The notes: generated by a model from the sequence alone, not told the origin. A stretch of DNA of 64,000 nucleotides from Promethearchaeota archaeon (GCA_048938105.1 JBHLMN010000003.1:32001-96000), one strand, 5' to 3'. Counted from the first letter of the stretch, positions 30,553 through 49,304 are shown. A program made the numbers and translations.

Positions 30553-33500
30553 ATGTATGAACTAGAAGTATTGCGTACGTATATGAAAAATGCTAAAATT
30601 ACTCCCCGAAGAATATTACAAGTCTCTTTTGGAATTATAATATTGCTGATTGTTGCTAGCAACTCAATATCCGCGGTAGCTTATCGATCGGAAATAAGTC
30701 AAGCTGTGGAAGAACAATCACAGAGGTTAATCTATACCTATTCACCTGATGACCGTATTGGAATTCTATATGGAGGAAATGATCCAGTCATCGCAGGAAC
30801 AGCGGTCTCACTATTTACCTCATTACGAATTGTCTATACCTCCATTGATCTAATACCAGTCTCTAGTTTGGATGAAATTGAAGAACTTTCATTATTTCAG
30901 TATAATATTCTCATCTATGTCTTTGAGAGCTCAACAGATGGAGTAATTATAGGAGAAACAGTCACTTGGAAGGATTTTGTTACATTCCTAACGGCTCATC
31001 CAGAACTTGACCATGTCCTCGGCATGGGAAATACCAACAACTTGTACCGATACTTACCCGTATCCCAAACAAATGTCTGGATAGAGGGTTCAGATGTTCT
31101 AGATGCAGAACTAGTGTATTTGTGGTGCATCTGGTCTGTAGCTGATATTTTAGAGACTAAAAATTCAGAATATTCGGAATACCATAAAGCAGGTATTAAT
31201 ATCCGTAAATTAAGCCTAAAGTGGTTTGCTGATAATATTGGTTCCATTGTGGAGCGGAATTTATCCCCAAAAGATCCAATGGGCGAGGAGGATCTAAAGC
31301 TTAAGCAAGAAAAATATGATAAAATGAAAGAAAGATTTCCAGCAGAGATAAAACCAAAGTTTGATATTCGTGAATTACCAGAAGAAAATAGGCCTGCTAT
31401 GTACATTAAGAAATCAACGGAAGAACCTCTAGGAGTGGGAGATCTTTTAATTGGATTACTTCCCCTTGATTCTGGCCTACAAGGACCTATAGGAGGAATT
31501 CTTGATATTTTGTTAGAAATATTCATCGCTATGGTTGGGGATGAGATCCAGATCTCTGAAGACTCTATGGATATGATTGAAACTGCATTCAAAGCGATTG
31601 AAGCTTTATTAGGCTTCTTTGGAGGAGGAGATATTTCTGTTGAATCAGCTCTTCATACATTGTTTGAAATACTTGAAGACATGATACCCTTTTCAGAGGA
31701 TCTGAAACCATATGTCAACCTACTTATTGACGCCATTCCTCTCCTCAGAGGAGATTTCTCCGCGATAAGTGATATTATTGGCCGTTTACTTGACTTGGTG
31801 ATTCCTGAGAGTTGGTCATGGTTTAAGGATCTTATTAAAGAAATACTTGCCCTTTCTGTAGAAGTAATTGATACAATGCACGAAGAAGGAGGGAATTTTC
31901 TCGATACTTTGCTTTCTGTTGTTTGTGAACGATATTTAGACATATTAATAGATAAATTCTTTGAACTCATTGGTGTTGATGTAGGAGAATATATTACTGG
32001 AATAAAGGTATTCTTTAAAGCCATCATGGATTTTCTAACTAATTTTAATTTTAAGAAAATCATCCAAGAATATTTACCTGACCTTATTGGATTTATCATC
32101 GATACATTAGGCGGAGGTTCAGGTGCTTCGGTCACTACTACTGAAGATGCTGAAACTTGGAGTAAAATTATTGGAATTTTAATGAATTTGTTGATGACCG
32201 CAATTGGATATACTGCTGATGAAGTTGAAATCACAGAAGGGGAAATTGAAGTCAAAAATAATTTAGCAAGTGTCTTTAAGGATTTATTAGAGTTACTCGA
32301 TGAGAAATTTACTGAAGTAACATACGCAGCTGATCAGATCCAGAATTTAATACAACAAATTAATACTATCATCTCTCAAGCAAAAGAAGCTGCATTATCG
32401 GATGTAGATACTTTTGTTTCAAATCTTGAAAATGCAATAACACAAACTGGATTTCAATTTCATTCTGACAGCACTAAAAATGCCAAGATCAAAGAAATGA
32501 TTGTTTCTGGGGCTACGATGGTCGCTGGGGCCATTAATGGTGATTTTACTAATAAGGATAAACTCCCAAATCTCAATAGTACCGTAGATTTCTTAATTGA
32601 TGTTACTGAATTTATGATTGGAGATATTGATGACACAAAAGAAGTGAAAATTAAGAAAGCTGTGAACAACATTGTGGCCATCATTGCAGTTATCAGTGAT
32701 AAAGACGAATTAAAACAATATATTAGCAGTACAATTGAGAAATTCAAGCAACAATTCTCAGATCCCGTTGCTTTGATTCAGAATACAATTAACTTTTTAA
32801 TAACGGGCGCCCAAGGACTTAATCTCAATACTGATGTTTTAGAAAAGATCAAGACCTTTGCAGAAATGGGAGTAGGGTTCTATAATATAATAATGTCGGC
32901 AAAAGACAATAGTATCCAAGGTATATTGCAAGCTCTTATTCAAAATATTGGTATGAGTCTTATTAAGGAATTTACTGGTGTAGACATTTCATTTGTCAAT
33001 GACATCTTGAAGTTCATCTTTCCAAAATTCTTCGGTGTTGATAGTTCAGAGCTGCCTTCTGCTCAAGAAATGATCAGTAATCTTCTCAGTCAACTAGATC
33101 AAGTAGATGGACTAGATGCAATAGTTAGTTCTGCTACAGGAGGCGCATTATCAAATCTAAACGATTTAAAAGATGCAATTGAGGCAATATTAGGATTTAT
33201 CTTTAGTGCAAAAGATATTTTCACAGATGGTATTCGCTGGCTCTTTGGACAGCTGATGGATTGGCTAGGTGGACAAATTGAACAATTAATCAGCATGCTA
33301 TTAGATGCTATCACAAATGCTCTTAATGCAAGTGACCTTTTCCCTCCTGAATGGGCTGGATCGTTACCAATAGGATTAGGCGGTTTTAGTCTTTTCAGTA
33401 TCGGCATTGAATTAGGTTTATATCCCCATTTCGGATTTGATGAATCAGCTTTTTCAGATTGGATGCTAGATATTGTCTTTGGAGGTTTGAATCCATTTGC

Positions 33501-36500
33501 AGGTGGAGATATTGCTGATTTCTTCAAAAAGATATTTTCATTCTTCGAATTAATACCAACCTTCAAAGCAGGATTTGAAATTGGAGGATTTGGGACTGAA
33601 GAAAATCCCATGATGGCTTTTCTCCTCGAATCTCTCGGACTTGAACTGGAATTCTCAGGCAAAGGGTGGTTCGAGATGGAGTTATTTACCCTAAAAGGTG
33701 GGGTTTTTGATACTGATAACTTCTTTAAGGTTATTGAATGGGGTTTCTCGTTTACCATTACTATCTCGAGAACTTTTACATTATTGGACTTCTTGACCGG
33801 AGGTACTGCTGGAGCACTTAATGCAATTGGAGAATACATTGGTTTAGATGCAATTACTGTAACAGTCTCATTTGGTATATTTCTTGAAGTTGTAAAACGG
33901 GCGGCTTCCGCTACTGGCCCAGAAGAAGGTTCATTTACGCTTAAAATTACTATAGGTCTGGCTGTCCACCTTGGTCTTAATCTCCTGATAGTTGGAATAT
34001 CTTTTGACTTTTCACTAGAGATCATACTGACGTTTTTCCAAGATCTTGTGGCCCCCACGCCGCTTCAGATTTTCTTGGAGATCATCCTCCGGTTCAGCGT
34101 CACTCTCACATTTCTATTCTGTGATTGGGAAATTGAATTTGAGTGGAAACCTCTCGACCCGTCTCCCTTAGAATTAACTCCAACTAACAAAGCGGAACAA
34201 GAAGATAGTGGGGCGATGGGCCTAGACGATGATGGCGATGGTTTAGGTAATGCATACGAGGAAAATACACCTGGTCTTAATCCCCTATCAGAAGACACCG
34301 ATGGGGACGGACTCACAGATAAGTTTGAAACTCAAACATCGAAAACCGATCCCATCTTACCAGATACCGATGGCGATGGATTGGACGATTTTGTCGAGTA
34401 TCACCATACAAAAACAAATCCTCGTCAACCAGATACTGATTGGGACGGATTAACTGATTATGAAGAGGCAATCATCATCCAAACTGACCCATTAGACACT
34501 GATACAGACGATGATGGTATTGATGATAATTATGAGGTCAATCATGCCTATGATATCTTGGGAGTGACACCCTCCGTAGAATATGTCATGATTGGAGGTG
34601 TCAAATATTACGATCGAACGGATCCCCTCAATCCTGATACCGATGGAGATGGCCTCATTGATGGAGAAGAAGGTGAATACGGTCCCTATTATGGTTTAGA
34701 TGACCTCTATAATGAGACAGCAGAAGCAGGTACTGATACCCCACCACTTATTTTCAATGGCGGATATACTCACCCCCTAGATAACGATACTGACGATGAC
34801 ACTTGGGAACAGCTATATGATGGAAAAATAGCCCCAAGTAAAGCACATGCTTGGGTGAAACTAAAAGATGGAACATACATTCTAACCACAGATTGGTGGG
34901 AAATCAAAGGAATGCCCATAGTCTACATGATAGAAGGAGAACCAGTGCTGAATATTACTTATACGAACCCCTGCAATCCTGATACTGATGGAGATACTGG
35001 TATTGGAGGCTACGATCGAACTGGTGCCCCTGATAAGGAACATAATGACCCACCAATAAGTGAAATTCTCAATTCTGATGGATATGAATTATCATTAGAT
35101 CCCCCAAGTGATCCCTGCGATGCTGACACTGACAACGATGGATTGATTGATGGTCTAGAAGGTACAAGAGGTTCGACATCGAATCACACGCATTATGCTA
35201 ATCCTGACACTGATGGCGATGGATTAGGTGATTTACAAGAAGTTTTATTGGGTTCTGACCCCAGACATCCTGATGGGGATCACGATATGGTCATAGACGG
35301 CGATGAATACTTTAAATACGGAACTCATCCAGCAAATCCTGATACTGATTATGATGGGCTCTTAGACGGTGAAGAGTTATATTGGTATCACACTAATCCA
35401 TTCTCAGTTGATAGTGATGGTGATCGAATCAGTGATTGGATGGAACTTATGGTCTACTTTACTGATCCCATGGACGAGGATACCGATAATGATCGACTAG
35501 ACGACTATGAGGAAACGTTCATCTATAAAACTAAGCCTCATGATCCTGATACTGATTCAGAAGAATGGAATGATTTGAATCATAATAACCGATATGATGG
35601 ACTTAAGGAATGGGATTTAGAGTACGATGAAAACGGTAATGGCGTCTGGGACGGTGATTATCTTCGAGACGGTGACGAGGTGTATGGTACCTACAATGGA
35701 ATTAAAACAGATCCCCTTCAATGGGATACAGACCACGATTCTATTACTTACTTCGTTGTGTATGGAGGTGGAAAAATAGACTATACTTTCCGCATGTCTG
35801 ACGGTGATGAGCTATACTATTACGGTACTAATCCAACTTATGGAGACACAGATCTTGATGGAATTACAGATGGTTGGGAATTATATTTAGGTTCAGGCTT
35901 AATTCCCAATTTCAAACCAATGCCATTAGATGCTTTGAATGATGACACTGACGGTGATACATTAGTTGATGGGCTTGAATTAATGATTGCTAACTTCACG
36001 AGTTTGATCTATCCCTATATTGGATTTTATACAGTACGGCCTTACAACACCTCACCTGTCTTACCAGATTCGGATTTCGACTTTTTGAATGATTCAGAGG
36101 AAATTGATATCTACCATACTCGTCCTGACAAAGTGGACACTGATAACGACACATTAAGCGATTATGATGAAATTTTCTTCCACTTTACAAATCCACTTAG
36201 AAATGATACCGATGCGGACGGATTAATGGATTGTAATGAGACAACAGCCATTGTTCCACTTGTAGGAATAGAATCTAAAGGCATAAAATTCTCTATTAAA
36301 TTATCGGGGCATATAGATACGGTAACAGGGGAAATGTATTATCCTGATTATCCAACGAATGCTACTGATAGGGATACTGACGATGATCTACTACCAGATG
36401 GGGCGGAACTAGATCCTGACCTGCCTTATAATCAGGCAGGTACTGACCCTATGATCACAGACAGCATTGTAAACGGTACACAAGACGGACTTCTATTTGA

Positions 36501-49264: not shown

Positions 49265-49274
49265 TTTTTTTGAT

Positions 49275-49304
49275 GCTAGGCCTCTTCCTAGCTCATTTTT
49301 TTTT
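49275..49304 (+). terminator. Hairpin plus T-tract terminator of the giant-protein operon
   Basis: GCTAGG-cctctt-CCTAGC followed by T9. A T7 tract also lies directly after the stop. Confidence 0.65.

Follow-up and report, generated by a model that had tools for sequence, protein, structure and literature searches.

Between positions 30553 and 49304 of the 64,000-nucleotide stretch of DNA analysed here (Promethearchaeota archaeon, GCA_048938105.1, JBHLMN010000003.1:32001-96000; the whole stretch is called the window, and all positions are counted from its first letter), three very large genes follow one another on the same strand. An initial annotation, made from the sequence alone, had proposed that they encode a three-gene surface system of a probable Asgard archaeon. 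The genome that contains them amounts to 5.85 Mb on 65 contigs, with an estimated completeness of 99%, and the closest relatives of the first gene product stem from metagenome-assembled genomes (MAGs) of Candidatus Hodarchaeota, Heimdallarchaeota and Promethearchaeota. These relatives bear out the proposed affiliation and render it more precise: judged by them, the host is a Hodarchaeales archaeon (Heimdallarchaeia, Asgard). The genes and the parts of their products are as follows (pLDDT, predicted local distance difference test).

30553 to 37194, plus strand: gene 1, open reading frame of 2213 amino acids
30553 to 30684, plus strand: gene 1 signal peptide, residues 1-44, with a basic n-region, a hydrophobic core at residues 21-44 and an ISA/VAY-type cleavage region (cleavage inferred)
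30745 to 31251, plus strand: gene 1 N-terminal alpha/beta domain, about residues 65-233, where the model of the head is best (pLDDT about 85-92)
31294 to 33327, plus strand: gene 1 helical array, about residues 248-925, from DSSP of the model (pLDDT about 55-78)
33352 to 34146, plus strand: gene 1 amphipathic beta module, residues 934-1198, where conservation within the family is highest
34225 to 36702, plus strand: gene 1 TSP3-type acidic repeats, residues 1225-2050, from Pfam TSP3_bac and motifs
37072 to 37167, plus strand: gene 1 C-terminal transmembrane anchor, residues 2174-2205, hydropathy 2.49, followed by a short basic tail
37136 to 46387, plus strand: gene 2 open frame, with start codon ATG 37196 (3063 amino acids) or ATG 37214 (3057 amino acids)
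37196 to 46387, plus strand: gene 2, 3063 amino acids (3057 from 37214)
37301 to 39295, plus strand: gene 2 conserved N-terminal module, residues 36-700, 36-45% identity across classes
39833 to 41245, plus strand: gene 2 second FG-GAP propeller region, residues 880-1350 (FG-GAP_3 9.2e-13, FG-GAP 5.1e-11 on the segment)
42116 to 42409, plus strand: gene 2 BNR/sialidase-like stretch, residues 1641-1738, below the Pfam cut-off
43733 to 46384, plus strand: gene 2 C-terminal FG-GAP propeller regions, residues 2180-3063, from Pfam by segment
46388 to 49264, plus strand: gene 3 open frame, with start codon GTG 46388 or ATG 46397; the recorded form has 955 amino acids
46397 to 49264, plus strand: gene 3, 955 amino acids, found only in Hodarchaeales
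48284 to 48508, plus strand: gene 3 PPC domain, residues 630-704, the sole PPC unit passing Pfam
49040 to 49261, plus strand: gene 3 transmembrane anchor, residues 882-904 (Gly-rich helix), and 51-residue Lys/Pro/Gly-rich basic tail, from hydropathy and translation
49265 to 49304, plus strand: T-run, 6-bp GC hairpin and another T-run, immediately behind the stop codon of gene 3

The three reading frames are packed tightly. A single base lies between the stop codon of gene 1 and the first ATG of gene 2, the second ATG follows 18 bases further on, and database records contain both forms of the protein. The gap between genes 1 and 2 is thus 1 or 19 bp, and that between genes 2 and 3 is 0 or 9 bp. 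The motif GGAGG is present ahead of each of the two gene 2 start codons and GGTGA ahead of gene 3, in all cases 8-9 nt before the start. Upstream of gene 1, 723 bp of intergenic DNA extend to a divergent gene, and the hairpin element behind gene 3 is likely the end of transcription. Taken together, the Shine-Dalgarno-like motifs before each start and the single terminator-like site argue for a tight coupling of the three genes. The co-orientation, the tiny gaps, the long upstream region and the single hairpin had all been pointed out in the initial annotation and were all found. A scan for sigma-70 promoters, a model that is not applicable to archaea, gave matches at chance level (67 versus 71 expected).

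Hydropathy analysis revealed N-terminal hydrophobic segments in all three proteins and C-terminal transmembrane segments, followed by basic tails, in the products of genes 1 and 3 only, just as had been annotated. The gene 1 product is predicted to be a type-I membrane protein and represents the 'A' family of what appears to be an Asgard-restricted pair; the gene 2 product, by its domain matches a multi-propeller protein devoid of an anchor in this genome, represents the 'B' family; and gene 3 is predicted to encode a type-I membrane protein with PPC repeats. The annotated abundance of N-x-S/T sequons held for gene 1 (21 versus 13.1 ± 3.1 in shuffled sequences) and gene 3 (21 versus 9.7 ± 2.7) but not for gene 2, where an enrichment is not clear (35 versus 28.6 ± 4.5). 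Acidic motifs of three kinds, which we infer to be calcium-binding, are indeed present, and the corresponding families all exceed their Pfam cut-offs. Protein 1 contains TSP3_bac (32.5 bits, cut-off 25) in three stretches and 27 Dx[DN]xDxxx[DE] motifs at residues 1248-2042 with a spacing of roughly 23 residues; a small beta-rich region without significant Pfam hit then leads to the transmembrane helix. Protein 2 matches FG-GAP_3 with 117 bits and FG-GAP with 65 bits and has 19 motifs of the same type. Its first propeller, at about residues 90-400, is FG-GAP/BBS7-like and is followed by about 480 residues without a Pfam hit, and a Gly/Thr/Ser-rich stretch lies between the BNR-like stretch and the C-terminal FG-GAP regions. 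Protein 3 matches PPC (PF04151) with 35.7-46.1 bits (cut-off 25.9) and has three DDxxExND linkers at residues 469, 598 and 729, at a spacing of about 130 residues. Six PPC units had been counted in this protein; just one of them passes Pfam. Its N-terminal half gave no Pfam hit, and a phmmer search of the protein against the PDB returned nothing. Searches with Pfam and NCBIfam detected no S-layer or hydrolase family, a match to which would have spoken against the initial proposal, and none of the three proteins gave a hit to a peptidase, a glycosidase or any further catalytic domain.

The occurrence of the genes across the phylum links the first two closely. We surveyed 399 Asgard species genomes using residues 1-1240 of protein 1, i.e., its head, and residues 36-700 of protein 2 as queries. 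The gene 1 head was found in 99 and the gene 2 N-terminal module in 80 genomes, and the distributions match family by family: genes 1 and 2 are present in 11 and 10 of 20 genomes of the window's own family (f1), in 10 and 8 of 12 genomes of family f5 and in 4 and 3 of 14 genomes of family f19, and both are missing from all 12 genomes of family f4 and all 135 of family f20. The pair thus occurs in several families of Heimdallarchaeia as well as in those of Lokiarchaeum ossiferum and the Thorarchaeota-type genomes. On more than 60 contigs that carry both, gene 2 has the same orientation as gene 1 and begins about 3 kb past the latter's head, and in nine further genomes from seven families, among them that of Ca. 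L. ossiferum, for which the loci were read, genes 1 and 2 abut in every case (9/9). Adjacency is even kept between classes at just 30-38% identity. Protein 1 aligns from end to end with its homologues in other Asgard classes (32-38% identity), has a nearly constant length of about 2040-2300 residues in the family, and is equivalent to most homologues in its N-terminal hydrophobic segment and its C-terminal anchor. Wherever a source names these homologues, they are called hypothetical proteins, and so are both members of the pair in the closed genome of Ca. L. ossiferum, NEF87_004127 (2078 residues) and NEF87_004126 (2629 residues). Protein 1 has a short cytoplasmic tail that reads FWRRKEGG in the window's family; in two homologues from one Heimdallarchaeia family (L019 and L024), the tail ends in GFKNPFKKRS, with an NPF motif.

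Organism-named matches to proteins 1 and 2 belong to Asgard taxa with two exceptions. One is a MAG labelled Methanobacteriota. The other is a contig of 1645 bp (L017, JAGLOY010000192.1) binned to 'Candidatus Aegiribacteria', which encodes the counterpart of gene 1 residues 739-1240 with 88% identity and is almost certainly a mis-binned Hodarchaeales fragment.

Fusion and duplication of the pair point in the same direction. Five genomes of a single Thorarchaeota-type genus, and metagenomes as well, contain the two genes as one fused open reading frame of about 4700-4900 codons. In the two fusions that were read, the transmembrane segment of the gene 1 part is followed by a 70-residue Lys/Ser-rich linker and a second hydrophobic segment, the counterpart of the gene 2 signal peptide; with this succession, both ectodomains are predicted to stay outside in the fused forms. 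A second pair in reversed order resides elsewhere in the window's genome (L021, G000:C49:6000-25999), where a propeller protein of 3208 residues is followed by a TSP3 protein of 2137 residues, both anchored; the same layout is present in another genome (L022, G009). In G009 and G011 this second block is situated directly downstream of gene 3, such that five giant genes stand in a row. The second pair is followed by a gene for a secreted protein of 850-900 residues with a TPR-like C-terminus. The trees of the two genes each set the paralogues apart as a clade, and 9 of 16 splits are common to the two trees, an agreement of which shared descent alone would give much. Thorarchaeota-type genomes contain, in addition, a short type of the pair (G316:C11, G334:C4, G333:C18, G335:C5, G099:C34 and others) that consists of a gene 1-like protein of about 1550-1610 residues, without part of the helical array, and a gene 2-like protein of about 1950 residues, and is often present beside the long pair in the same genome.

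Gene 3 behaves differently from this conserved core. Within the window's genus, genes 1 and 3 are present in the same 11 of 20 genomes; gene 2 is found in ten of these, the eleventh being fragmented, and none of the three occurs in the other nine, which are 70-94% complete. The order 1-2-3 is kept wherever contigs allow, and in this genus the three-gene form is an all-or-none trait, a behavior newly described here; the unlinked or patchily co-occurring homologues that would have spoken against a linked unit were not encountered. Outside this group the picture changes. True gene 3 orthologues were detected only in the window's family (12/20) and in its sister family f2 (2/2), where gene 3 adjoins gene 2 whenever one contig holds both; the rest of the phylum has only distant PPC-repeat proteins, encoded at unrelated places. 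The notion of a three-gene system therefore holds with respect to linkage, but the part conserved across Asgard classes is formed by genes 1 and 2, and gene 3 appears, from its distribution, to be a later addition in Hodarchaeales, which is likewise a new result. We also considered that gene 3 might be the split-off C-terminus of an ancestral gene 2. This idea was rejected: gene 3 has no BLAST similarity to any gene 2 homologue, and a PPC domain was absent from the three homologues of gene 2 checked in other families.

The missing anchor of protein 2 had been taken as a design feature, i.e., a free propeller protein held at the surface by its two anchored partners. This did not withstand comparison with its orthologues. 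We retrieved 125 proteins, most of them members of the gene 2 family, and recognized a C-terminal transmembrane segment in 94; many of the others are partial. The C-terminal third of protein 2 varies by lineage, and its alignment with other classes is weak or absent past about residue 2100. When its C-terminus was aligned with those of eleven relatives, nine were seen to run past the sequence YILYGKE.YL into a linker of 55-70 residues, a transmembrane segment and a tail of basic residues. The protein of the window ends at YILYGKE.YL, as does a relative 92% identical to it, about 60-90 residues before most orthologues, including most of those in its own family, and two more have lost the anchor segment in different ways. 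In the sister family (L023), gene 2 keeps its transmembrane segment although gene 3 follows. Most orthologues being anchored, even beside gene 3 in the sister family, these alignments argue that the anchorless gene 2 is a recent truncation and not part of the design of the system, a conclusion that is new here. Within Hodarchaeaceae, the anchor was lost or truncated at least three times (window/P0071, P0078, P0086) while the gene stayed intact, and the survival of gene 2 after such a loss would fit its retention by partner proteins. Gene 3 as a general compensation for a lost gene 2 anchor was dismissed, because most gene 2 orthologues next to gene 3 keep the anchor.

The genes occur together, and the pair stays adjacent, fuses and is duplicated as one unit; these findings, along with the domain content, the type-I topology that is predicted and the confinement to Asgard archaea, lead us to the following picture, to which we assign an overall probability of roughly 60%. 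The three open reading frames would constitute one tightly packed gene cluster of a Hodarchaeales archaeon, in which genes 1 and 2 represent, at this locus, an accessory, Asgard-restricted two-gene module whose products, two giant type-I membrane proteins exported by Sec, would act jointly. In protein 1, some 800 residues of TSP3-type repeats would lie near the membrane and carry, away from the anchor, an orphan head made up of the alpha/beta domain, the helical array and the strongly conserved amphipathic beta module, while protein 2 would be a chain of FG-GAP/VCBS-type beta-propellers. The proteins would most likely form a calcium-stabilized, membrane-anchored heteromeric structure on the cell surface. 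We expect this structure to establish contact with particles, polymers or other cells, for which the propellers and PPC units would provide the surfaces that bind external ligands. The parts of this picture differ in strength. That the genes form a functionally linked surface-protein cassette is very probable in our view. That the proteins physically bind each other and mediate contact is a more tentative proposal, for which we would put the odds somewhat short of even. A structure prediction for a complex of residues 36-680 of protein 2 with residues 890-1240 of protein 1 returned a score of 0.00 and, as it was run without controls, counts neither way.

Several observations weigh against the picture just outlined. 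Adjacency and fusion indicate functional linkage and not physical binding, and the surface location is a prediction from hydropathy and sequon counts alone. The available structure models are of moderate quality: a model of the gene 1 head (residues 40-1239, from an alignment of 35 sequences) has a mean pLDDT of 68.5 and a predicted template modelling score (pTM) of 0.39, and a model of the beta module alone (residues 890-1240) has values of 72.4 and 0.53. In a search of sequencing runs, the junction of genes 1 and 2 appeared in DNA from sediment and mangrove metagenomes and not in any RNA run. Moreover, about three quarters of the 399 Asgard species genomes have no match and the pair is accessory; it is missing also from the nine genomes of the window's own genus mentioned above (70-94% complete) and from a closed 4.3-Mb genome of the L. 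ossiferum family. Because of this patchy distribution, which extends to near-complete relatives, the pair cannot, as far as the genomes tell, be a general Asgard envelope.

The domain types involved are, in addition, common in stand-alone adhesins, and the proteins could be independent surface adhesins or binding proteins, co-transcribed merely for co-regulation and without forming a complex. TSP3, FG-GAP/VCBS and PPC each occur in stand-alone prokaryotic surface proteins, and most orthologues of each protein possess a signal peptide and an anchor of their own. An example is provided by the Myxococcus proteins CglD, a gliding-motility lipoprotein, and MtsD, implicated in cell-cell cohesion, both with a role in cell-surface contact according to their family names, which share the acidic TSP3 repeat array (PF18884) with protein 1. 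The CglD model NF033765 of NCBIfam matches protein 1 with an E-value of 5e-34 and 117.3 bits, far under the equivalog cut-off of 400, and the likeness is therefore one of repeats only; neither protein has a counterpart to the gene 1 head, its transmembrane anchor or an obligatory propeller partner. Likewise, thrombospondin and COMP share the type-3 repeats, but the lectin-like TSP_C domain that follows these was not found by Pfam in protein 1. The FG-GAP/VCBS propellers of Vibrio cholerae Bap1 and RbmC serve as extracellular binding modules (PMC3789753) and resemble those of protein 2, but the gene 2 family, with about 2600-3200 residues, at least four propeller regions, a conserved N-terminal module, usually a transmembrane segment and a fixed partner gene, is of a different build. 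What renders independent action unlikely is the behavior of the pair as a whole: adjacency persists at a low identity (30-38% between classes), recurring fusions preserve the topology, the pair duplicates as a unit, the two distributions match by family and gene 2 survives the loss of its own anchor.

A further explanation assigns the gene 1 head a role in engaging membranes or lipids, the beta module either inserting like a barrel into a partner membrane or shielding lipid against the helical array while protein 2 docks. The head is best considered part by part. Its N-terminal alpha/beta domain has the SAVED-CHAT protein 8tl0 as top match in VIA-align (Z 10.6, root-mean-square deviation (rmsd) 4.2, 159 residues aligned), tied with half-domains of periplasmic binding proteins at Z 9-10, which suggests that the modelled fold is a generic Rossmann/caspase-like one. 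About 650 residues of the head are helical in the model. With the whole head as query, Foldseek returned lipovitellin and microsomal triglyceride transfer protein (MTP) as best matches (E 5e-4 to 1e-3), and because the TM-scores amount to just 0.10-0.12, we regard this likeness to lipid transfer proteins (vitellogenin, MTP, apoB) as a lead only. Profile searches of the head against the PDB produced only TSP3 motifs and compositional helical matches, Pfam gave no lipid-transfer match, and a feature search of the ESM Atlas with the head yielded nothing usable.

The beta module is the most conserved part of protein 1, with a mean column identity of 48% compared to 35% for the whole head. Its model contains ten strands of 8-19 residues, each with a hydrophobic and a polar face (mean difference 3.66 hydropathy units versus 1.28 ± 0.30 in shuffled strands). 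At a model pLDDT of 72, the best 50 VIA-align matches among 48,161 PDB representatives are all transmembrane beta-barrels of the outer membrane, with Z from 11.8 down to 7.9 and 134-225 aligned residues; they are led by CymA (4d5b, Z 11.8, rmsd 4.7, 196 aligned residues) and include autotransporter, TonB-receptor, Omp85/TpsB and LptD barrels at Z 8-10. Foldseek added FepA (E 9.7e-4), and the ESM Atlas TonB-receptor barrels with TM-scores of 0.47-0.49. The sequence tells a different story. Pfam had no hit over residues 890-1240, and a profile search of 1.84 billion proteins, one representative for each 50%-identity cluster of about 15 billion, retrieved 53 clusters only, all of which agree in length and match position with the gene 1 family and its short type; at this level, the module therefore appears to be an orphan. 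Neither these searches nor a profile search of the PDB placed it in a known outer-membrane barrel family. The module thus resembles outer-membrane barrels such as CymA, autotransporters, TonB-dependent receptors and Omp85/TpsB in its modelled shape, with antiparallel strands of alternating faces, but differs from them in that it has no sequence relation to them and is part of a Sec-exported protein anchored by a helix; moreover, cultured relatives of the host have a single membrane (PMC9834061). The amphipathic, barrel-like and sequence-orphan character that the model and searches suggest for this conserved module is described here for the first time.

According to the model, the hydrophobic face of the module could meet a membrane, a lipid, the helical array or protein 2, and it could simply pack on the helices or on protein 2. 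As, in addition, model confidence is moderate, the lipid-transfer likeness has minimal TM-scores and neither a barrel nor a lipid-transfer family is linked to the module by sequence, we consider an interaction of the head with membranes or lipids improbable. In its boldest version, a long shot, a stalk stiffened by calcium would present the barrel-like module to a partner cell, into whose membrane the module would insert or from which it would draw lipid, with the propellers of protein 2 docking. If true, this would mark the first use of an outer-membrane-type beta structure by an archaeon, and the lineage that gave rise to eukaryotes would possess a device dedicated to membrane contact between cells.

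A structural component of the cell coat that stands in for an S-layer is a much less probable explanation still. The nearly constant length of protein 1 would suit such a role, and cryo-tomography of L. ossiferum has revealed a single membrane with complex surface proteins that await assignment and no ordered S-layer (PMC9834061). Yet the module is present in only about 20-25% of the species genomes, is missing from near-complete and closed relatives, and contains no lattice-forming domain that we could find. Finally, a device for capturing substrates or degrading polymers, in which a propeller of sialidase type would work beside PPC domains like those of secreted peptidases and collagenases, can hardly be upheld, as the PPC domain of protein 3 and the BNR_2 match of protein 2 are not accompanied by a catalytic domain in Pfam or NCBIfam. 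The BNR_2 score, 26.3 bits for the segment and 18.7 for protein 2 in full, stays under the cut-off of 31.4 and hence below the level of sialidase/BNR propellers.

Returning to the heteromeric contact structure that we favor, a parallel in layout is offered by the integrins. Like the Asgard pair, the alpha and beta subunits of integrins are a set of two large type-I membrane proteins whose cytoplasmic tails are short; one protein begins with an FG-GAP-type propeller with Asp-rich loops and the other with an alpha/beta domain, and a function that depends on the pair would be a further common feature. The FG-GAP propeller with calcium-type loops that characterizes the alpha subunit has its equivalent in the matches and motifs of protein 2 given above. 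The VWA/beta-I domain of the beta subunit with its metal-ion-dependent adhesion site (MIDAS) has no such equivalent: neither VWA nor Integrin_beta was hit by Pfam in protein 1 at E ≤ 0.01, and a Z of about 10 to Rossmann/caspase-like folds does not identify the alpha/beta domain as a VWA fold. PSI, EGF and calf/thigh domains were not found by Pfam in the Asgard proteins either, integrins have one propeller where protein 2 has several, and protein 1 has TSP3 repeats and an orphan head instead. The likeness is one of layout and not of family membership.

Among Asgard surface proteins, the 'badge' LOKIASV2_13140 of the Lokiarchaeon Nerearchaeum marumarumayae, a very large predicted surface protein with a novel fold and beta-sheet domains of very large size, has homologues reported in all Promethearchaeaceae genomes (bioRxiv 10.1101/2025.07.22.663070). 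Compared by description only, it differs from protein 1 in that nothing is said in the preprint of a partner gene, a stalk or a pair, and the distributions do not match, as the pair was found in 4 of 14 genomes of that family.

The genes surrounding the cluster differ from genome to genome. Convergent with gene 3, a gene on the minus strand (49561-54078) encodes a protein of 1505 residues with a signal peptide and a C-terminal transmembrane segment, which consists of right-handed beta-helix/NosD repeats in nine stretches (E about 1e-108) and has an embedded C-type lectin domain (PF00059, E 2.3e-22), i.e., an animal-type lectin domain within a surface protein of an archaeon. The minus-strand gene at 26077-29829, which diverges from gene 1, encodes a permease-like protein of 1250 residues with FtsX domains; this neighbor is kept in the three closest relatives (L011-L013) and not in L014-L016. 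As neighbors differ in other genomes, both genes were rejected as parts of the system. An oligopeptide-type ABC transporter on the plus strand (22035-25600), comprising a BPD_transp_1 permease and two ABC_tran plus oligo_HPY ATPases, and a PIN-domain gene (55604-56014) are ordinary.

The initial annotation knew of no described system with this layout, and literature searches on giant FG-GAP, TSP3 or propeller surface proteins of Asgard archaea and on the L. ossiferum locus tags retrieved no paper that describes the pair or the cassette; the tags NEF87_004127 and NEF87_004126 are not mentioned in the supplements of PMC9834061. As far as could be searched, the cassette, which the genomic comparisons indicate to be real and linked, is undescribed in print and would combine known module types around an orphan head. 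Cultured Asgard archaea lack an S-layer, and the complex surface proteins on their single membrane are thought to mediate cell-cell contacts and surface adhesion, which play a central part in syntrophy, in crawling motility and in eukaryogenesis models (PMC9834061; PMC13716822). The cassette provides named candidates for these surface structures, two of which, NEF87_004127 and NEF87_004126, belong to a cultured organism. Given its patchy distribution, it would explain a specialized contact function of certain Asgard archaea and not their general envelope.

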